Of a DNA stretch of 64,000 nucleotides, positions 3,982 to 57,345 are shown one piece after another. A program made the position numbers and the translations under genes. The notes below the pieces were generated by a model, which was not told where the DNA came from, searched no databases, and worked only from the letters and a program-made list of their open reading frames with translations. The first letter of the stretch is position 1. Each line of letters opens with the position of its first letter. This DNA comes from Candidatus Omnitrophota bacterium (GTDB taxonomy: Bacteria > Omnitrophota > Gorgyraeia > Gygaellales > Profunditerraquicolaceae): the NCBI GenBank assembly GCA_018825985.1, contig JAHKAP010000052.1, positions 6,373 to 70,372 of the forward strand, in the 5' to 3' direction.

Positions 3982-4791
3982 ATGCTTAGGATACTCTTTA
4001 ATTTAGGCCCAATAAATATTTATTCTTACGGGTTAATGCTGGCCCTGGCATTTTTATCCGGGATGTATTTAATTGAAAAAAGAGCCCGGAAGCAGGGTCT
4101 GAATAAAAACAAAATTCTGGATCTGGTTTTTCTTATTCTTTTTTCTGCAATCCTGGGCGCGAGGGCATTATTCGTTATACTAAACTGGGATTATTACAGG
4201 TCTGACCTAATTGGTATTTTAAAGGTTTGGGAAGGCGGCCTGGTTTTCTACGGCGGATTGATCCTGGCTTTTTTTGCCAGCGTTTGGTTTTTAAAAAAGA
4301 ATAAACTATCTTTCTGGAAAACAGCGGATATTCTAAGCCCGGCATTAGCCTTGGGAGAAGTTTTTGGCAGGATCGGATGTTTTTTGAACGGGTGCTGTTA
4401 TGGTTTGATTTCCGAAAAGTGGGGGATTAGTTTTCCGGCGCGGGATAATCCTCCGGCTTTTTCCCAACAGGTCTTTGATGGCCTGATATCCCCGGCAGCA
4501 AGATGTTCATTGCCGGTGATCCCGACCCAGATCTATTCTGCCCTGGCTGGCCTGGCGATATTTTGTATACTCCTGGTTTTGGAGAAGAAGAAAAGTTTTG
4601 ACGGATTTTTATTCTGGGTTTTTATCCTGCTTTATTCCTTATTTAGGTTTGTAATCGAAAGCTTTCGTTATTACGAAAAAAACTTTTTTGTTCTCAATAA
4701 TCTGACCATATCCCAGGTCATCAGTATAGTTTTGGTTATAATTTCCCTGGTTTTTTTAGTCAAAGGCAAAAAGCAGGCAGAAAACAGGTGA
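3982..4791 (+). CDS. lgt: Prolipoprotein diacylglyceryl transferase
   Basis: Lgt signature regions (YGLMLALAFL, GGLVFYGG, GRIGCFLNGCCYG). Polytopic membrane protein. Confidence 0.85.
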   Translation: MLRILFNLGPINIYSYGLMLALAFLSGMYLIEKRARKQGLNKNKILDLVFLILFSAILGARALFVILNWDYYRSDLIGILKVWEGGLVFYGGLILAFFASVWFLKKNKLSFWKTADILSPALALGEVFGRIGCFLNGCCYGLISEKWGISFPARDNPPAFSQQVFDGLISPAARCSLPVIPTQIYSALAGLAIFCILLVLEKKKSFDGFLFWVFILLYSLFRFVIESFRYYEKNFFVLNNLTISQVISIVLVIISLVFLVKGKKQAENR

Positions 4792-6965
4792 AGATGAATA
4801 ATAAAATAGTGCTGGATATTTCCGGGATGCATTGCGCCTCCTGCGCTTTAAATATTGAACAGTCATTGAAAAAAGTTGCCGGCGTAATTGGTTCCCGGGT
4901 TAATTTCGCTTCAGAAAAGGCATATATTGAGTTTGATCCCGATAGGTTAAATGTCCAGGATTTTATCCGGATAGTTGAGCACAGCGGGTATAAGGCCGCT
5001 GTTCCCGGGACAATGGATGCGGAAAAAGAGTCCCGGGATAAAGAAGTTAAGGCTTTAAGGACGAAATTCATCATCGCTCTGATCCTTTCATCCATCCTGA
5101 TGGTTATATCAATGATAAAGCATACACAAATGGTTATGCCCCAGTTTGTCTTATCTACTGCGGTATTGGTCTGTGGCTATCAGTTTTTTATCCGGGGGAT
5201 AACCGTGGTTTTTAAAAACAAACAGGCGAATATGGATACCCTGGTAGCTTTGGGGGTAGGCAGCGCCTATTTTTATAGTTTATGGGCAAGTCTTTTTGGA
5301 GGCGCTAATCTTTATTATGAGTCAGCCGCTTTTTTGCTTACTTTTATTTTATTGGGTAAATACCTTGAAGCAGCGACCAAGAGAAAGACTTCTCAGGCTA
5401 TCAGGCGACTCTGGGGATTAAGGCCCAAAACAGCTTTGGTTATCCGTGAGGATAAGGAGCAAGAGGTTGCCGTGGAAGATTTAGTAATTGGGGATATTAT
5501 TATTGTTAAACCCGGCCAGAGCATACCGGTGGACGGTAAGGTTATGCACGGTTATTCCAGCGTAGATGAGTCAATGGTGACCGGAGAGAGCTTGCCAATA
5601 GAGAAGACCATCAATTCCATGGTTATCGGGGGGACAATAAATAAATCCGGCTCCTTTAAATTTCAGGCCGAAAAAATAGGTAAAGATACCATTCTGGCCC
5701 AGATCATTAAATTAGTGGAAGAGGCCCAGGGGTCTAAGGCCCCTATCCAGAAGCTGGCAGATAAAATTTCGGGTTTTTTTGTGCCGGCTGTTTTATTGAT
5801 AGGTGCGCTGACGTTTATGATCTGGTTTTTTCTGGGGAAAAACCCTGATTTGGCCTTAAGTAATTTTATCTCGGTATTAATCATCGCTTGCCCTTGCGCC
5901 TTGGGGCTGGCTACTCCTACGGCTGTGATGATGGGAACAGGTATAGGAGCGAACAACGGCATACTTATTAAGAACGCCTCCAGTCTTGAGATTACCCATA
6001 AATCCGGGGTGGTTGTTTTTGATAAAACCGGGACCCTGACCGAAGGAAGGCCGTCTTTGACCGATGTAGTATTAATGAGAGCTAAAGATAGACGGGAAGT
6101 TTTGAAATACGCGGCCATAGCCGAGAAACGTTCCGAGCATCCTTTGGCCGAGGCTATTATGGCTGAGGTCAAGAAAGAAGATTTAGATATTCCTGACCCG
6201 GATTTGTTTAATTCCCTGGCCGGGAAAGGGGTGATTGCCAGGTTTAATTCAGAGGTAATAATTTTAGGGAATCGGAGGTTGTTCGGCGAAAGAAAGATTG
6301 ATTATTCTAATTTAGAAGATAAATTAGCGGCATTAGAAGCCCAGGGTAAGACTGTGATGATGGCCGGGTATAAAAACGAAATTTTGGGGATACTGGCTTT
6401 CGCAGATACCTTAAAAGAAACAGCTAAATCTACGGTAGAGGTGTTAAATAAAATGGGCAAAGAAGTCATAATGATCAGCGGAGATAATCTGGCTACAGCC
6501 AAAGCGATCGCGAAGGCCGCAGGCATAGAAAGAGTTTTGGCTGAAGTTCTGCCGCAGGACAAGGTTCAAGAGATAAAGAATATTCAGGCTAAAGGTTCGA
6601 CGGTGGTTATGGTGGGAGACGGGATAAATGACGCTCCGGCATTAGCCCAGGCTGATGTAGGCATCGCAATAGGTGCGGGAACGGATATAGCCATGGAATC
6701 GGCGGATATTGTATTGATCAGGGATGATTTGTTGGGCGTGATCCTGGCTATTGACTTATCTCGGTATACCTTAAGAAAGATTCGGCAGAATCTTTTCTGG
6801 GCTTTCTTTTATAACAGCATAAGCATACCTGTAGCCGCAGGCCTGCTATATCCGTTTTTTAAAATCTTGCTTAATCCTGTAGTTGCCGCCCTGGCCATGA
6901 CTTTCAGCTCAGTTTCAGTTGTGGTTAATTCGCTTATGATGAAAAGATACTGTTTTAGGCGGTAG
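4788..6965 (+). CDS. copA: Heavy-metal (Cu+-type) translocating P1B-type ATPase
   Basis: N-terminal HMA domain GMHCASCA, transmembrane CPC motif, phosphorylation site DKTGTLT, GDGINDAP hinge. Confidence 0.85.
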   Translation: MKMNNKIVLDISGMHCASCALNIEQSLKKVAGVIGSRVNFASEKAYIEFDPDRLNVQDFIRIVEHSGYKAAVPGTMDAEKESRDKEVKALRTKFIIALILSSILMVISMIKHTQMVMPQFVLSTAVLVCGYQFFIRGITVVFKNKQANMDTLVALGVGSAYFYSLWASLFGGANLYYESAAFLLTFILLGKYLEAATKRKTSQAIRRLWGLRPKTALVIREDKEQEVAVEDLVIGDIIIVKPGQSIPVDGKVMHGYSSVDESMVTGESLPIEKTINSMVIGGTINKSGSFKFQAEKIGKDTILAQIIKLVEEAQGSKAPIQKLADKISGFFVPAVLLIGALTFMIWFFLGKNPDLALSNFISVLIIACPCALGLATPTAVMMGTGIGANNGILIKNASSLEITHKSGVVVFDKTGTLTEGRPSLTDVVLMRAKDRREVLKYAAIAEKRSEHPLAEAIMAEVKKEDLDIPDPDLFNSLAGKGVIARFNSEVIILGNRRLFGERKIDYSNLEDKLAALEAQGKTVMMAGYKNEILGILAFADTLKETAKSTVEVLNKMGKEVIMISGDNLATAKAIAKAAGIERVLAEVLPQDKVQEIKNIQAKGSTVVMVGDGINDAPALAQADVGIAIGAGTDIAMESADIVLIRDDLLGVILAIDLSRYTLRKIRQNLFWAFFYNSISIPVAAGLLYPFFKILLNPVVAALAMTFSSVSVVVNSLMMKRYCFRR

Positions 6966-14860: not shown

Positions 14861-15382
14861 ATGAGGAGATTTGGTTTTATAATATTAATTTTAGCGGTGG
14901 TTGTGGTCTTGGCTGGTTGCGGCAAGAAACAGGAGGCCCTGGAACAGATGCAGCAGCCTATGGCGCCCGAGGATTTAAGCAGGCTTAAGACTGAGGCCCA
15001 GGTTGCCACGGAGATGAAGCCGGAGGCTATAATGTTTCAATCCCAAAAGGCGGCTTCTGCGGGTTTACAGCCTCAAACAGCGGTAGCGCCGCAATCAGAG
15101 GTAAGGCTGGAACCGTTACCCCCGGCAGGACCTTATAGGCCTACAATTCACGAGATCCAGACAGCCTTAAAGAACTCTGGTTATTATATAGGTAAGGTTG
15201 ACGGTAAGGTTGGTCCGATGACCAAAAAGGCGATTGAAGAATTTCAGAAAGCCAATAATCTTAAGGTTGACGGTAAGGTTGGTCCTAAGACCTGGTCAGT
15301 ATTAAACCAGAACCTTAATCAAGCTTCAGCTGTAACAGCGGAAACTCTATCAGCTTCTTCTGCATCAAGCCAGAAAAGATAA
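14861..15382 (+). CDS. Lipoprotein with tandem peptidoglycan-binding (PG_binding_1-like) repeats
   Basis: Lipobox LAGC. Two repeats of the form GKVDGKVGP.TKKAIEEFQKANNLKVDG. Confidence 0.6.
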   Translation: MRRFGFIILILAVVVVLAGCGKKQEALEQMQQPMAPEDLSRLKTEAQVATEMKPEAIMFQSQKAASAGLQPQTAVAPQSEVRLEPLPPAGPYRPTIHEIQTALKNSGYYIGKVDGKVGPMTKKAIEEFQKANNLKVDGKVGPKTWSVLNQNLNQASAVTAETLSASSASSQKR

Positions 15383-15389
15383 GCTGGTC

Positions 15390-15418
15390 TTGAAAAATAT
15401 ATAGCCTTATGCTATTCT
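15390..15418 (+). promoter_or_regulatory. Sigma70-like promoter (TTGAAA-17-TATTCT) driving the structured RNA
   Basis: -35 at 15390-15395, -10 at 15413-15418. The predicted TSS (~15424) coincides with the first base of the RNA's closing stem. Confidence 0.4.
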
Positions 15419-15423
15419 TTAAT

Positions 15424-15620
15424 AGCCGATAAAGGCAAACTCTGGGAAACCAGGGGGCCCCTGCGGATTTATCGCAGGGCCCACTTAAGCCAAACGTGTA
15501 AACAGTCTGGCGTAGGCGGGGCAAAGCCACAGGCCTAATCCTGCCGATAGTAGAGGTGGGGATGGCGGCTGGGTTGCCGAAAGGGGCGAGGATATTTTAA
15601 TAGACCCGCCTTTATCGGCT
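15424..15620 (+). ncRNA. Candidate ~197-nt structured RNA of unassigned class (GEMM/c-di-GMP-I-like signatures, or a novel sRNA)
   Basis: 5' AGCCGAUAAAGGC pairs with 3' GCCUUUAUCGGCU (13 bp). Internal CUGG-GAAA-CCAG GNRA hairpin preceded by GCAAAC. 11-bp GC hairpin GGGGGCCCCUGCG/CGCAGGGCCC. GGGGCAAAGCC-ACA-GGCCUAA string. Own promoter and downstream terminator. No ORF. Confidence 0.35.
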
Positions 15621-15644
15621 GCTAAATTTCCGAGTTTTTAGAAT

Positions 15645-15677
15645 AATCCCAACATTTTTGTTGGGATTTTCTATTTA
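15645..15677 (+). terminator. Intrinsic terminator-like hairpin (AATCCCAACA/TGTTGGGATT, U-rich tail)
   Basis: 10-bp perfect stem, 4-nt loop, then TTCTATTTA. Confidence 0.4.
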
Positions 15678-15697
15678 CGGGTGGTATAATAGCCACT

Positions 15698-16921
15698 ATG
15701 ATTGTTTTCCCTCAGGGTTTTTTATGGGGCGCGGCCACTTCTGCCCATCAAGTCGAAGGCGAAAATAGAAATAATGATTGGTGGAAGTGGGAGAGGTCCG
15801 CAAATTTGAAAGAAACCTCCGGGAGCGCCTGCCGGCATTACCAGCTTTTTAAAGAAGACTTTGATCTGGCCCGGTCCCTCAATCATAATTGCCATCGTTT
15901 TTCAATCGAATGGAGCCGTATATTTCCTTCCAGCGGCGCAATTTCTCGCGAAGAGCTTACGCATTATCGGAATGTTATCCAGGCGTTAAAAGAACGGGGC
16001 CTGGAGCCTATAGTTAGTCTCCATCATTTTACCAATCCTCTTTGGTTCAGTAAATTAGGCGGCTGGGAGAATCCGGGATCTCAAGGGCACTACTTAAATT
16101 ATGTCCGCAGGGTAGTGGAAGAATTCGCCGATTTGGTTAAATATTGGGTGACTATTAATGAGCCTATGGTTTACGTTTATTATTCTTATGTTATCGGCGC
16201 CTGGCCCCCGCAGGAAAAATCTTTTTTAAAAGCCAGAAGAGTTACCGCTAATCTTATTTCCGCGCATACCCAAGCTTATAAATTGATCCAGGTAATTTAT
16301 AGAAATAAGGGATTGCCTAAGCCTGAGGTTGGCATCGCCAAGAATATGCAGGCTTTTGTTCCCTGCAAAAATAACTTTAGGAACAGATTGGCGGTTTATC
16401 TGCGGGATAAATCATTTAACTTCGATTTTCTAAACAAGTTGGCAAAGTCTAAAACCATGGATTTCATCGGGGTAAACTATTATACCCGTAGCCTGGTTGA
16501 GACTTCCAGTTGGTCGCTGAATAACGTATTGACCCGGATCTGCCAGGACAACCATAGTTCTCTTCTTAAGAATTCCTTAGGTTGGGATATTTACCCTGAA
16601 GGATTAGTCGACCTTTTATTAAGGCTCAAAATTTACGATCTTCCGGTGATAATCCTGGAGAATGGAATTTGTACTATGGATGATGCTCTAAGATGGAATT
16701 TTATTAATCAGCACCTGAAAAGTATAGGCATTGCCTTAGCCAAAGGAGTAAGGATTTCAGGTTATATCTATTGGTCCCTTTTGGATAATTTTGAATGGGA
16801 CAAAGGTTTTGGTCCCCGCTTCGGTTTAATCGGAGTAGATTATTCTGATTTCAGGCGCACGGTCAGAGAGAGCGCAAGAATTTTTTCCCTGGTTTGCAAA
16901 ACCGGGATACTTGAGCAATGA
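15698..16921 (+). CDS. Glycoside hydrolase family 1 beta-glucosidase
   Basis: GH1 N-terminus FPQGFLWGAATSAHQVEG, acid/base region TINEP, nucleophile region ILENG. Extended -10 TGgTATAAT at 15682-15690 lies only 7 nt from the ATG, with no SD, so the mRNA is probably leaderless. Confidence 0.8.
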   Translation: MIVFPQGFLWGAATSAHQVEGENRNNDWWKWERSANLKETSGSACRHYQLFKEDFDLARSLNHNCHRFSIEWSRIFPSSGAISREELTHYRNVIQALKERGLEPIVSLHHFTNPLWFSKLGGWENPGSQGHYLNYVRRVVEEFADLVKYWVTINEPMVYVYYSYVIGAWPPQEKSFLKARRVTANLISAHTQAYKLIQVIYRNKGLPKPEVGIAKNMQAFVPCKNNFRNRLAVYLRDKSFNFDFLNKLAKSKTMDFIGVNYYTRSLVETSSWSLNNVLTRICQDNHSSLLKNSLGWDIYPEGLVDLLLRLKIYDLPVIILENGICTMDDALRWNFINQHLKSIGIALAKGVRISGYIYWSLLDNFEWDKGFGPRFGLIGVDYSDFRRTVRESARIFSLVCKTGILEQ

Positions 16922-55772: not shown

Positions 55773-56144
55773 ATGCCTAAGAAGACAATCTTAGTAGTTG
55801 ATAACAAGCCGGATATTTTAGAATTCTTACAGAAAAGACTGGAGTCTCAGGATTATCAAGTAATTACCGCTTCCGATGGCGTTGAAGGCCTTAAAAAGGC
55901 TATCAGCCAAGAAATAGACTTAGTCTTGTTAGATATTGCCATGCCTAAGAAAGACGGTTTTGCTATGCTTAAAGAACTAAAGTCCCAGGAGGCGACTAAG
56001 GATATACAGGTAATTATCGTTTCGGCTAAAAGAGAGACTAAATCTATATTGGAAGGACAAAATTTAGGCAGTTTTGATTATTTCCTTAAGCCTTTTAATT
56101 TCGAAGAATTAATTAAGCATATCAAAAGGTGTGTCTGGAGTTAA
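55773..56144 (+). CDS. Single-domain response regulator (receiver only)
   Basis: ILVVDNKPD ... DLVLLDIAMPKKDG ... FLKPF receiver motifs. Confidence 0.75.
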   Translation: MPKKTILVVDNKPDILEFLQKRLESQDYQVITASDGVEGLKKAISQEIDLVLLDIAMPKKDGFAMLKELKSQEATKDIQVIIVSAKRETKSILEGQNLGSFDYFLKPFNFEELIKHIKRCVWS

Positions 56145-56150
56145 AAAAAA

Positions 56151-56205
56151 CGGGGTCAGAATTATTTTTTAAGACAAATACGGTGAAAAAATAATTCTGA
56201 CCCCG
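56151..56205. terminator. Bidirectional terminator formed by a GGGGTCAGAATTATTTTTT palindromic repeat (copy 1 of 2)
   Basis: 20-bp arms. A-run upstream and T-run downstream. Lies between convergent genes. Confidence 0.7.
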
Positions 56206-56208
56206 TTT

Positions 56209-57345
56209 TTATTTAAGATAATCTAAGATAATTTTGGCGGCACGGATTGCTGCGCCAGGCGAGCCTAACTGATACTTAACTTCAGCCAGCCCTTTAGTCA
56301 TTTCATCTATTTCGGAAGGGTTGTTCAATAAGGCGATTGCTTCCTTAGCGATCTTCTCCGGTTTTGCTTGATACTGGATAAATTCAGGGATTATTGACCT
56401 GTCTGCCACAAGGTTTACCATTCCGATAAAAGGAACTTTTACCAAAGGACGGTATAAAAAATAATTCAGCCAGCTCATTTTATAGATTATAAAAAAAGGC
56501 TTCTTCATGATCGTGGTTTCTAAAGTAGCGGTCCCGGAACAGACTAAAGCGAAATCCGCGGCCTCCAGGCAATCATATGTCCTGGCCTCGACTATCCTTA
56601 AATCAAAACCCGGATTTTCTGTCAATCGTTCATATATAGAAATATCGACTTGAGCTGATTTAGCGATAATAAACTGGGTATTTTTAATCCTTTGATTTAT
56701 TAACCCGGCGGACTCAAGCATTATCGGCAGGATATTCTCGATCTCCTGTTTGCGGGAACCAGGCAAAAGAGCGATAGTGATATTTGTTTGGGATAATTTT
56801 ATATTCTCAAGTATCATTGTTCTTTGTTTCTGCGGTTTGACAATATCCAACAGGGGATGTCCGGTAAAATCAACCCTTAGGCCCTGGCGCAGGTAAAAAT
56901 CCTCCTCGAATTTAAAAAGAACGACCATCCGATGAATATATTTTTTTATAGTTTTTATCCTGCCCGGCCGGCTGGCCCAGACCTGAGGGGAGACATAATA
57001 TATGACCGGGATCTTTTTATTGATTGCTTTAGCCAGCCTGAGGTTGAATCCGGAGAAATCCACCAGGATTATCCCTGAAGGCTTTACTTCATCAATTTTC
57101 TTAAGGATTAATTCTTTTAAGGCTAGGAATTTGGGGAGTTTTTTCAGGGCGTCAAAAAAACCGAATACGGCTAATTCTTTAATATCGCAATAAATCTCAG
57201 CGGCAGTTTCACTTAATGAATTTCCTCCCACCCCGGAGATTCTAATTTGTGGGTCAATTTTCTTGATAGCCCTGGCCAGCTCTCCGGCAAGCAGATCGCC
57301 TGAGGGTTCTCCGCAGATTATCAGGATCTCTTTTGTTTGCGCCAT
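56209..57345 (-). CDS. lpxB: Lipid-A-disaccharide synthase
   Basis: LpxB N-terminus (ILIICGEPSGDLLAGELARAI) and GT-B fold motifs. Confidence 0.85.
   Translation of the reverse strand: MAQTKEILIICGEPSGDLLAGELARAIKKIDPQIRISGVGGNSLSETAAEIYCDIKELAVFGFFDALKKLPKFLALKELILKKIDEVKPSGIILVDFSGFNLRLAKAINKKIPVIYYVSPQVWASRPGRIKTIKKYIHRMVVLFKFEEDFYLRQGLRVDFTGHPLLDIVKPQKQRTMILENIKLSQTNITIALLPGSRKQEIENILPIMLESAGLINQRIKNTQFIIAKSAQVDISIYERLTENPGFDLRIVEARTYDCLEAADFALVCSGTATLETTIMKKPFFIIYKMSWLNYFLYRPLVKVPFIGMVNLVADRSIIPEFIQYQAKPEKIAKEAIALLNNPSEIDEMTKGLAEVKYQLGSPGAAIRAAKIILDYLK

Follow-up and report, generated by a model that had tools for sequence, protein, structure and literature searches.

In an uncultured Candidatus Omnitrophota bacterium, the region between a peptidoglycan-binding lipoprotein gene and a GH1 beta-glucosidase/cNMP-binding patatin operon contains an expanded member of a known riboswitch class. 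We consider it likely, with a probability of roughly 0.7, that this element is a class-I c-di-GMP (GEMM-I) riboswitch aptamer housed in a self-contained small transcription unit and governed by a pocket-excluding helix under kinetic control. The window (the whole 64-kb stretch of DNA that was analyzed; all features below are on its plus strand unless stated otherwise) was searched with Rfam cmscan, and the c-di-GMP-I model RF01051 matched positions 15424-15581 over its full length (1-87) at 41.0 bits, the gathering score being 35 (whole-window E = 1.4e-4, local E = 9.9e-7). This was the sole Rfam RNA-family match in the window. The margin over the gathering score was only 6 bits because the alignment bypasses 81 nt at a point for which the model provides 19, and the aptamer as delimited here (15424-15581) includes a 62-nt insertion. 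A sequence-only reading of the same DNA had described a c-di-GMP-I-like element that was not a textbook GEMM owing to about 60 extra nucleotides, and the scan upheld both the class and the departure from it. Its remark that the element is also 6S-like was not borne out: 6S, tmRNA, and RNase P gave no Rfam match within 15300-15760 at E up to 10 or in the whole window at E up to 0.5. These three RNAs, as well as a second aptamer hidden in the insert, were rejected as candidates, with only weak, chance-level matches at E up to 10.

By Rfam alignment, the ligand-contacting positions G20, A47, and C92 correspond to G15434, A15523, and C15577, A47 being taken by us to be a ligand contact from the Vc2 crystal structures. 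C15577, which pairs with the ligand, lies in the string GCCGAAA (15576-15582), which did not vary in any orthologue, and the C15578 and G15579 that follow it are C93 and G94, the canonical P1a partners of G14 and C13. The pocket and tertiary nucleotides all map onto Vc2 positions as given in PMC11705072, which is also the source of the Vc2 numbering, the G14-C93 pair, and the ligand roles of G20 and C92. The P2 (P1b) hairpin, defined by sequence, folds, and covariation, has 6 bp (C15440 to G15455) and a GAAA tetraloop (15446-49) and sits directly 3' of GGCAAAC, much as the sequence-only reading had it with a GNRA hairpin preceded by GCAAAC. It is followed by GGC (15456-15458), the counterpart of Vc2 G42-A43-C44, in which C15458 is C44 and its partner G83 is G15568; this pair is essential in Vc2 (PMC11705072), and in the window its inter-helix positions are filled as judged from sequence identities. 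Beyond the insertion, G45 and C46 (15521-22) and A47 to A49 (15523-25) lead into P3 (P2) with its tetraloop receptor, a region (15521-15575) delimited by Rfam alignment and by covariation among six orthologues; the receptor consists of CCUAA (15534-38) and AUG (15562-64). The conserved junction string recognized earlier, GGGGCAAAGCCACAGGCCTAA, was found at 15518-38. Both parts of a type 1 GEMM, the GNRA tetraloop on P1b/P2 and the receptor in P2/P3, are thus present (one strain has GCAA, which is still GNRA), and the elements required for a predicted tetraloop-receptor docking are in place. Across 22 family members P2 was 100% paired, with five of its six pairs changed on both sides. Positions 42-44 always read G(A/G)C in family members, but this was demanded by the search pattern, and with C44 fixed in this way the family cannot show C44-G83 covariation.

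Compared to Vc2 of Vibrio cholerae (RF01051), the window element has the same GGCAAAC, 6-bp stem with GAAA loop, and G(A/G)C, the same GCAAAGCC-NNN-GGCCUAA, receptor AUG, and GCCGA, the same G20, A47, C92, C44, and G83, and an identical P2 length. It differs from Vc2 in carrying 62 nt, in two hairpins, between C44 and G45, in having an adjacent P1a of only 2 bp (beside the pocket only C13-G94 and G14-C93 can pair), in having a distal 13-nt strand that sequesters G14 to C22, and in having a further hairpin, H4, between C93/G94 and that strand. P1a length affects ligand binding in Vc2 (PMC11705072), and the outer AGC/GCU of the long helix described below could lengthen P1a across H4.

Because the pocket is canonical (G20, A47, C92, C44-G83, and the GAAA loop plus receptor), we predict c-di-GMP as the ligand. 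An expanded junction that has changed the specificity, for example to another cyclic or linear dinucleotide, is an improbable alternative. It would have precedents in the clan (the c-GAMP variant and RF03167/RF03168), the insertion adjoins pocket nucleotides, and the orthologues score best against c-di-GMP-I-GGC (RF03167), with loci L136 and L140 above its gathering score; yet G20, A47, and C92 are the c-di-GMP combination, and even the orthologues that match RF03167 keep A47 rather than G47. RF03167 and c-GAMP (GEMM-Ib) share clan and fold with the window element, but the G47 of RF03167 (GCGAA) is absent, the window and all orthologues reading GCAAAG, and Rfam clan competition for the window element kept RF01051 as best. 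The A20 that we take to define the c-GAMP (GEMM-Ib) class is likewise absent from the window, where position 20 is G15434, and from the orthologues.

The extra 62 nt (15459-15520) form two abutting hairpins, each defined by folds and covariation, that are placed exactly between C44 and G45. Hairpin A (CCCUGCGG-AUUUA-UCGCAGGG, 15459-15479) had been read as an 11-bp GC hairpin; the hairpin is real, but it has 8 contiguous pairs (15459-66/15472-79) and reaches 11 only with a bulged C. The next residues, CCC 15480-82, more likely close hairpin B (CCC.CUUA.GCCA ... UGGC.UAGG.GGG, 15480-15520), which ends directly before G45, than extend hairpin A. The compact junction in which G45 follows C44 directly is therefore interrupted by these 62 nt, and the insertion turns a three-helix junction into a five-helix junction. 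Covariation in homologs, which had been named as a check on the stems, supports those of P2 and of both inserted hairpins: family-wide, 6/6 pairs of hairpin A and 6/6 pairs of hairpin B were changed on both sides, with 98.5% of cells paired for hairpin B. No fewer than 21 further loci, most of them from Omnitrophota, had the two-hairpin insertion, and its covariation was strong. Two abutting helical domains spanned the whole C44|G45 insert in 21 of 23 pattern-defined members, compared to 6.3% of shuffled inserts. When 22 sequences were aligned, 96.8% of cells were paired versus 65.8% in shuffles, and 17 of 20 pairs were changed on both sides; slid controls gave 35 to 50%. These results demonstrate that the two-hairpin insertion at C44|G45 is a recurrent expansion of Omnitrophota GEMM-I RNAs.

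Insertion variants scored 37 to 49 bits in Rfam versus 66 to 82 bits for canonical GEMM-I RNAs on the same contigs, and present covariance models score expanded RNAs only just above threshold. A well-studied riboswitch fold thus accepts, and repeatedly acquires, whole hairpins at the strand break by the ligand pocket; the 5' side of P2, the P3 loop, and the position after C93 are other expansion sites. Such tolerance should be of use for RNA engineering and for better covariance models. A pattern scan of metagenomes gave six loci among the matches listed, every one belonging to the CCGAAAAGGC subtype, with no further closed-type relative among those matches; viral contigs gave no match to the element. 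The riboswitch type is known, and the expanded form appears to be undescribed, as no published description of it was found in a literature search whose incomplete coverage leaves novelty unproven.

The second departure from Vc2 is a perfect 13-nt inverted repeat, AGCCGATAAAGGC (15424-36) and GCCTTTATCGGCT (15608-20). Perfect 13-nt inverted repeats with loops of 20 to 260 nt were present at two loci in the 64-kb window, compared to a shuffle mean of 0.22, and the inverted-repeat unit (15424-15621) folds at -91.4 kcal/mol (z = -4.7), with 0 of 200 shuffles folding as well. The sequence-only reading had taken the repeat for a 13-bp closing stem. The repeat itself is real, but its 3' arm ends at 15620 rather than 15621, and it is not a neutral closing stem, since it pairs the 5' strand of the pocket, including G20. 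By Rfam alignment, this 5' strand (15424-15436) comprises C13 and G14 (15427-28), J1a/1b AUAAA (15429-33), G20 (15434), and G21 and C22 (15435-36), and the distal strand GCCUUUAUCGGCU (15608-15620), found by an inverted-repeat search, is its perfect complement. Because G14 to C22, including the ligand-contacting G20, are paired in it, the 13-bp helix is incompatible with the bound pocket; rather than P1, it is an anti-aptamer helix, and at the level of base pairing the two folds are mutually exclusive. The helix is conserved at 10 to 13 bp in 6/6 orthologues and was also present at the unrelated loci L022, L023, L069, and L077. In the RNAalifold consensus of the six orthologues it has 12 pairs with wobble-compatible changes only, and no compensatory double change was found within this consensus because the 5' strand is fixed by the aptamer. 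By our reading of the alignments, the outer pairs have also changed in a compensatory manner in L139 and L023.

The fold compatible with the pocket has AGGGGCG (15582-88) paired to CGCCUUU (15607-13), which frees the 5' strand from CCUUU and closes the variable hairpin domain H4 (15582-15613; constrained fold and tail-only fold). Each orthologue has a hairpin of different sequence in this region, with AAGG just before it. The pocket-compatible fold was 21.6 kcal/mol weaker than the closed fold in the constrained fold, and since this advantage exceeds any plausible binding energy, the switch would work only under kinetic control. Vc2 forms its P1a and its pocket only upon ligand binding (PMC11705072). 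We propose that without ligand the 13-bp helix would form and the pocket could not, whereas c-di-GMP bound while the RNA is still being transcribed and the distal strand, about 38 nt further on, has yet to emerge would lock the pocket. The CCUUU of the distal strand would then close H4 by pairing with the AAAGG repeat that immediately follows C93, so that switching would amount to a strand exchange between two AAAGG copies.

The riboswitch has its own candidate promoter (15390-15418), which scored 9/12 in a consensus scan and consists of a -35 TTGAAA (15390-95), a 17-nt spacer, a TG (15410-11), and a -10 TATTCT (15413-18), with a predicted transcription start at about A15424. The sequence-only reading had placed this promoter so that transcription starts at the first base of the long helix, and the spacing agrees with it: TTGAAA-17-TAT(A/T)(C/T)T lies 5 to 7 nt before the 5' strand of the helix in 6/6 orthologous loci, and versions with TATACT or TATATT lie at an equal distance in L136, L139, L140, L141, and L147. 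These five lineages, whose GH1 proteins are 62 to 64% identical to that of the window, carry the promoter, aptamer, distal strand, terminator, and TGnTATAAT in matching synteny, and the element is thus conserved beyond one genome. The aptamer is missing from the syntenic lineages L006, L007, L008, L137, and L144. The nearest relatives (GH1 78 to 79% identical) have deleted it, and it is therefore dispensable. In L006, L007, and L008 there is a clean gap of about 215 nt at the aptamer site, and a promoter remnant persists in L006 and L007. Because more distant syntenic relatives carry a homologous unit, the absence in L006-type relatives is a loss, and the promoter-aptamer-distal strand-terminator unit upstream of the GH1/patatin operon is best read as ancestral, with five other lineages keeping it and five having lost it. 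Hairpins A and B occur at the GH1 locus only in the lineage of the window, and L136, L140, L141, and L147 lack hairpin A and have a canonical junction. The locus thus offers a natural series of one riboswitch unit that was lost in five lineages, is canonical in some, and is expanded in others.

The same comparison disposes of a MITE-like mobile element that landed between the stop codon and the terminator. The missing stretch of about 215 nt at exactly this site in the nearest relatives, the perfect 13-nt inverted ends, and a flanking TGCTA direct repeat (15410-14 and 15620-24) would fit such an insertion. It is nonetheless very improbable and was rejected, since a homologous unit exists in five syntenic lineages that are more distant, the window contains a single copy, viral contigs gave no match, and the inverted ends consist of a pocket strand and the strand complementary to it, which RNA pairing has kept conserved.

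Among strains, all seven of seven substitutions fell within 15441-15513, in P2, hairpin A, and hairpin B, with one in L002 breaking a hairpin B pair; hairpin B is the least constrained part of the element among strains. These substitutions, the losses in five syntenic lineages, the two closest included, and the restriction of hairpins A and B at the GH1 locus to a single lineage would suit an aptamer that is decaying neutrally, its sensing already damaged by an insertion that, adjoining C44 and G45, could impair the pocket. We regard such a relic as unlikely. The pocket and tertiary nucleotides, the promoter, and the perfect 13-bp helix are all intact, and every position downstream of 15513 through the GH1 ATG is invariant among strains. 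Moreover, the changes in P2 (U15441C, which converts U.G to C-G, and GAAA to GCAA) keep the hairpin intact, and the finding of this insertion architecture, with covarying pairs, at 21 or more further loci speaks for its being tolerated or of use.

The terminator-like hairpin recognized earlier was recovered by terminator scan and fold as an intrinsic terminator (15645-15677), AAUCCCAAC-AUUUUU-GUUGGGAUU followed by UUCUAUUUA, with the hairpin at 15645-68, a tail to 15677, and a stem extendable to 15639-74. It is conserved in most syntenic loci, including those without the riboswitch; L147 has one compensatory A-U to G-C change, and L144 has a different hairpin there. In a consensus scan, an extended -10, TGGTATAAT (15682-90), was found 7 nt before the GH1 ATG at 15698 (feature 15682-15700). 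It is the GH1 operon's own promoter, probably giving a leaderless transcript, and TGnTATAAT lies 7 to 11 nt before the ATG in 10 of 11 syntenic lineages and about 45 nt before it in L139. GH1 has no SD, which about 20 of the 65 other ORFs in the window show, and because of this and of the TATAAT 7 nt before the ATG, read-through transcripts may not be translated. Both the terminator and the GH1 promoter are also found in relatives without the riboswitch. No antiterminator was found in tail-only folds of five loci, and manual comparison of P3, H4, the distal strand, and the linker with both terminator arms gave only 4- to 6-bp matches, none of them conserved. When the 5' part of the aptamer was removed, the terminator was still folded at four of five loci that gave a valid test (L069 was left out, as its excision was mis-anchored at an earlier UGCCGAA).

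The order of pocket-occluding long-range helix, uncoupled terminator, and promoter of the next gene does not fit the standard attenuator scheme. The sequence-only reading had allowed for control of the downstream operon or for an independent sRNA. We favor, at slightly less than even odds, an output in which the element modulates, by attenuation or interference, transcripts that either end at the shared terminator or run through it into the GH1 operon. Bc1, from the Bacillus cereus group, also has a long expression platform; its downstream intrinsic terminator is folded with or without ligand and masks any response (PMC11218506), which makes Bc1 a precedent for a seemingly constitutive terminator after a GEMM-I aptamer. 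Bc1 differs in having two terminators and a canonical aptamer, whereas the window has one terminator, shared with the upstream gene, and the promoter of the downstream gene immediately after it.

It is also possible, though we think it the weaker case, that the output is a stand-alone small RNA of about 250 nt that senses c-di-GMP, is toggled by the ligand between a closed rod and an open form exposing the distal strand, and works in trans, by binding a protein, or as a c-di-GMP buffer, leaving GH1 unregulated. The conserved promoter, a terminator without competing structure, a GH1 gene that lacks an SD and has its own extended -10 even in riboswitch-less relatives, and the near-identical RNAs of L022, L069, and L077, which have a promoter and a terminator each but lie among unrelated genes at the three loci, point in this direction. 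There is precedent in the Vc2-containing small RNAs of V. cholerae described by Pursley and Waters, whose abundance is c-di-GMP dependent and in which the aptamer is the 3' end and protects against decay (10.1101/617340). As in those RNAs, a GEMM-I aptamer would lie in a noncoding transcript and the ligand state would set the fate of the RNA rather than of a downstream ORF; unlike in them, the window aptamer is 5' proximal and the terminator hairpin is the 3' end. However, the majority of characterized GEMM-I RNAs work in cis, the location upstream of GH1 is conserved in six lineages, and no target or seed sequence was identified. Closed-type relatives, moreover, precede typical c-di-GMP targets, namely, PilZ, PilZ-T2SSE, and a secreted beta-helix protein, with L023 upstream of PilZ and PilZ-T2SSE genes.

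A broader version of the small-RNA proposal is more doubtful: a family of Omnitrophota small RNAs, autonomous from promoter to terminator and with an expanded GEMM-I aptamer at the core, in which co-transcriptional capture of c-di-GMP would block the 10- to 13-bp helix by AAAGG strand exchange. Such RNAs would work in trans, or buffer c-di-GMP with high affinity, rather than serve as leaders of the adjacent gene, and the C44|G45 hairpins would be a functional expansion segment, e.g., a docking site for protein or RNA. What probability remains for the output goes to an element that affects stability from within the 3' UTR of the upstream mRNA or to the decaying relic discussed above. With its parallels to both Bc1 and the Vc2 small RNAs, the window architecture is a good test case for noncanonical riboswitch outputs in an uncultured phylum.

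Several further features of the region were noted. A pairing of 15617-32 with the pre-ATG segment 15679-94, seen in one fold, was rejected, as the sequences are not conserved in the orthologues. A small ORF after GCCGAAGGAUGG occurs only in L140, L141, and L147 and was rejected, being missing from the window and L136. The earlier statement that the element has no ORF holds in practice: a mechanically called 71-aa ORF on the minus strand (15315-15530) overlaps it, and the orthologous regions have no coding conservation. CsrA-type GGA motifs and rut-like C/U-rich linkers were also observed.

Between the genes for a PG_binding_1 lipoprotein (preceded by an MFS transporter) and a GH1 beta-glucosidase (followed by a cNMP-binding patatin), all features that the sequence-only reading had listed at 15390-15700 were present, with the 3' arm of the long helix corrected by one base. 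They comprised a plus-strand sigma-70-like promoter (15390-15418; TTGAAA, 17-nt spacer, TG-n-TATTCT), a perfect 13-nt inverted repeat providing the two arms of that helix (15424-36 and 15608-20), a GAAA hairpin immediately 3' of GGCAAAC, a GC-rich hairpin, the string GGGGCAAAGCCACAGGCCTAA (15518-38), and an intrinsic-terminator-like hairpin (15645-68) with a U-rich tail behind it. The 198-nt stretch folded at -91.4 kcal/mol (z = -4.7), and perfect 13-nt inverted repeats with a 20- to 260-nt loop occurred at two places in the window versus a mean of 0.22 in shuffles. When the whole window was scanned at Rfam gathering thresholds, the single match was RF01051 (c-di-GMP-I) at 15424-15581 on the plus strand, at 41 bits (gathering score, 35), as the proposal of a GEMM-like RNA had anticipated; permissive Rfam scans gave no further credible RNA family. 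The alignment matched the conserved blocks AAAGGCAAA, GCAAAGCC, CUAA, AUG, and UGCCGAA and skipped 81 nt in the window where the model holds 19.

Pocket and tertiary nucleotides were placed by the numbering of Vc2, the Vibrio cholerae c-di-GMP-I riboswitch (PMC11705072): G20 (15434), G21 and C22 (15435 and 15436), C44 (15458), G45 and C46 (15521 and 15522), A47 (15523), G83 (15568), and C92 and C93 (15577 and 15578). As in Vc2, the stem beneath the GAAA loop has 6 bp, and the CCUAA/AUG tetraloop receptor is present. A20 marks the c-GAMP class and G47 marks RF03167, whereas this aptamer has G20 and A47. Because G20, A47, and C92 are present, c-di-GMP is the predicted ligand. Every sequence-level feature marks the element as a true member of the c-di-GMP-I class of folds; junction topology and the P1 arrangement are where it departs from the family.

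The "extra 60 nt or so" that had made the RNA look unlike a textbook GEMM is a 62-nt segment (15459-15520) that folds into two abutting hairpins, A (15459-79) and B (15480-15520), occupying exactly the space between C44 and G45. Pattern scans of one genome per species, in which most matches were chance ones in coding DNA, and of metagenomes yielded at least 22 more GEMM-I loci in which a long insert occupies this position, nearly all from Omnitrophota and a few from MAGs labelled Planctomycetota. The insert formed two helical domains spanning its full length in 21 of 23 loci, the window included, versus 6.3% of shuffled inserts. When 22 members were aligned by structure with N padding, 96.8% of cells were paired versus 65.8% in shuffles, both-sided changes occurred at 17 of 20 pairs, and slid controls gave 35 to 50%. 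The paired percentage is biased towards structure by taking hairpin boundaries from each sequence's own minimum-energy fold, which leaves pair-type diversity unbiased. The insert stems show strong covariation. Expanded variants scored only 37 to 49 bits, canonical GEMM-I RNAs on those contigs 66 to 82 bits, and no description of a C44/G45 expansion was found in the searchable literature. Five contigs of the same population differed by seven substitutions in total, all within 15441-15513 (the GAAA hairpin P2 plus hairpins A and B), two of which preserve P2 (U.G to C-G; GAAA to GCAA).

The long helix had been read as a closing stem. The RNAalifold consensus of six orthologues retains it with 12 pairs, among which four changes were one-sided and wobble compatible and the outermost pair, by our reading, changed from A-U to G-C in one (L139). 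It recurs at four unrelated loci (L022, L069, L077, and L023), the last of which, again by our reading, differs from the window by compensatory changes at two pairs. A15 to A19 and G20 always lie within it, and in the window G21 and C22 are paired as well. In Vc2, a G14-C93 pair lies beneath the ligand-C92 pair, G20 touches the ligand, and P1a and the pocket form on ligand binding only (PMC11705072). Since the long helix pairs the G20 region, it and the bound pocket are mutually exclusive, and it is therefore an anti-aptamer helix rather than P1. The canonical P1a adjoining the pocket has just 2 bp (C13-G94 and G14-C93), and a fold forced to contain the pocket-compatible pairs was 21.6 kcal/mol less stable than the closed one. 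In the pocket-compatible fold, the distal strand uses its CCUUU to pair with AGGGGCG (15582-88), shutting H4, the variable hairpin domain after C93/G94. Because AAGG immediately follows G94 in every orthologue, CCUU would toggle between two equivalent partners, and with so large an energy gap the switch would work kinetically only, with ligand caught before the distal strand emerges some 38 nt past the aptamer end.

The closest syntenic relatives by GH1 identity (L006 and L007, 78 to 79%; L008, 67%) have a lipoprotein-GH1 gap of only about 95 to 105 nt, lacking roughly 15414-15632 and retaining a promoter-like TTGAAA...TATGCTA, the terminator, and TATAAT-ATG. This gap suggested an insertion in the window's lineage, which was ruled out by more distant syntenic loci that carry the aptamer. 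A TGCTA direct repeat (15410-14 and 15620-24) borders the segment absent from L006 and L007 and may be microhomology used in their deletion. The unit is conserved beyond this genome, with a GEMM-I aptamer in the corresponding position in five more distant lineages (L136, L139, L140, L141-143, and L147/148; GH1 62 to 64% identical). Each has a TTGAAA-17-TATACT/TATATT promoter 5 to 7 nt ahead of the 5' strand (A/G)GCCGAUAA(A/G)GG, a variable hairpin behind GCCGAAGG, the distal strand CCUUU(A/G)UCGGC, the same terminator AAUCCCAAC / GUUGGGAUU, and TGnTATAAT ahead of the GH1 ATG. L137 and L144 lack the unit. Since distant syntenic loci carry the aptamer and several lineages do not, the unit is ancestral at the GH1 locus, with several losses since. 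Only the window's lineage has gained hairpins A and B there; the junction is canonical (GGAC-GCAAAG) in L136, L140, L141, and L147, and L139 has two hairpins 5' of P2 in place of the C44/G45 insert. In L141 alone, the terminator is separated from the GH1 promoter by two inserted long inverted repeats, CACATAAGTTATG... and ATCCCGACGAGTGCACTAAAATTTTC... (1010-1140, local coordinates).

No coupled expression platform was found. The terminator persisted in folds of four loci after removal of the aptamer's 5' part (L069, mis-anchored, was left out), and neither terminator arm had a conserved upstream complement. A compensatory change in L147 shows the terminator to be a real RNA hairpin. Most riboswitch-less relatives have it too, and in them it presumably terminates the upstream operon; the hairpin at this place in L144 is a different one. 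The stretch from the lipoprotein stop codon (15382) to the promoter of the riboswitch contains no terminator. TGnTATAAT, a perfect extended -10, lies 7 to 11 nt before the GH1 ATG in 10 of 11 syntenic lineages (15682-15700 from -10 to ATG in the window; also L006-L008, L136, L137, L140, L141, L144, and L147) and about 45 nt upstream in L139. GH1 lacks a Shine-Dalgarno sequence, which about 20 of the 65 ORFs in the window show. A near-leaderless promoter of its own very probably serves GH1, whose mRNA is probably leaderless or nearly so, unusual in this genome.

We favor action in cis, on transcripts that get as far as the terminator or beyond it, at a probability of about 0.45. Placement upstream of GH1 is kept in six lineages, closed-type relatives lie upstream of genes for PilZ, PilZ-T2SSE, and secreted beta-helix proteins, and most characterised GEMM-I RNAs work in cis. 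An autonomous c-di-GMP-sensing sRNA is a doubtful alternative, and a relic is improbable. Outcomes other than cis control have precedents: Vc2 determines how stable a non-coding RNA is (10.1101/617340), and in Bc1 a second, ligand-insensitive terminator masks the switch (PMC11218506). A 3'-UTR role in stability of the upstream mRNA is very improbable.

Other variants were also seen. In Omnitrophota GEMM-I aptamers, extra hairpins lie 5' of the GAAA hairpin, not after C44, in L139 (1607-1662) and L044 (4440-4510, minus strand); because L139 is orthologous to the window riboswitch yet expanded elsewhere, this one RNA has been expanded independently at different sites. L099 holds a canonical GEMM-I (4390-4472, 82 bits) and an expanded one (6133-6269, 45 bits) 1.7 kb apart on one Omnitrophota contig, and the two forms therefore coexist in one genome. 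The same expanded riboswitch, 92 nt identical, stands at both ends of the 5.2-kb Omnitrophota contig L051 (189-280 and 5150-5241), which may reflect either repetition of a regulatory module or a repeat in the assembly. Three nearly identical closed-type RNAs (L022 6808-6991, L069 3138-3324, and L077 6537-6723; minus strands) have a roughly 100-nt insertion in P3, each with a TTGTTT-17-TGnTATGGT promoter and its own terminator in completely different gene neighbourhoods; their GAAGGGG/CCCCUU (purine-rich/pyrimidine-rich) helix and U runs could be a first terminator. Downstream of the closed-type riboswitch in L023 (3618-5538, minus strand) are genes for a PilZ protein and a PilZ-T2SSE secretion/pilus ATPase, which tie the RNA family to c-di-GMP effector genes. 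The CCGAAAAGGC subtype (L130-L133, L072, L045, and L125) has two alternative 3' halves, AUGAUCGCCGGGCG... and AUGACAGCCGAGCUGCCGAA; the second overlaps the 5' arm of a terminator, pointing to a more conventional ON switch for c-di-GMP that has an additional, competing strand. Elsewhere in the window, a 28-nt inverted repeat (56143-56213; 96% complementary, 15-nt loop, A and T runs at its flanks) between convergent genes (55773-56144, plus; 56209-57345, minus) looks like a bidirectional intrinsic terminator.
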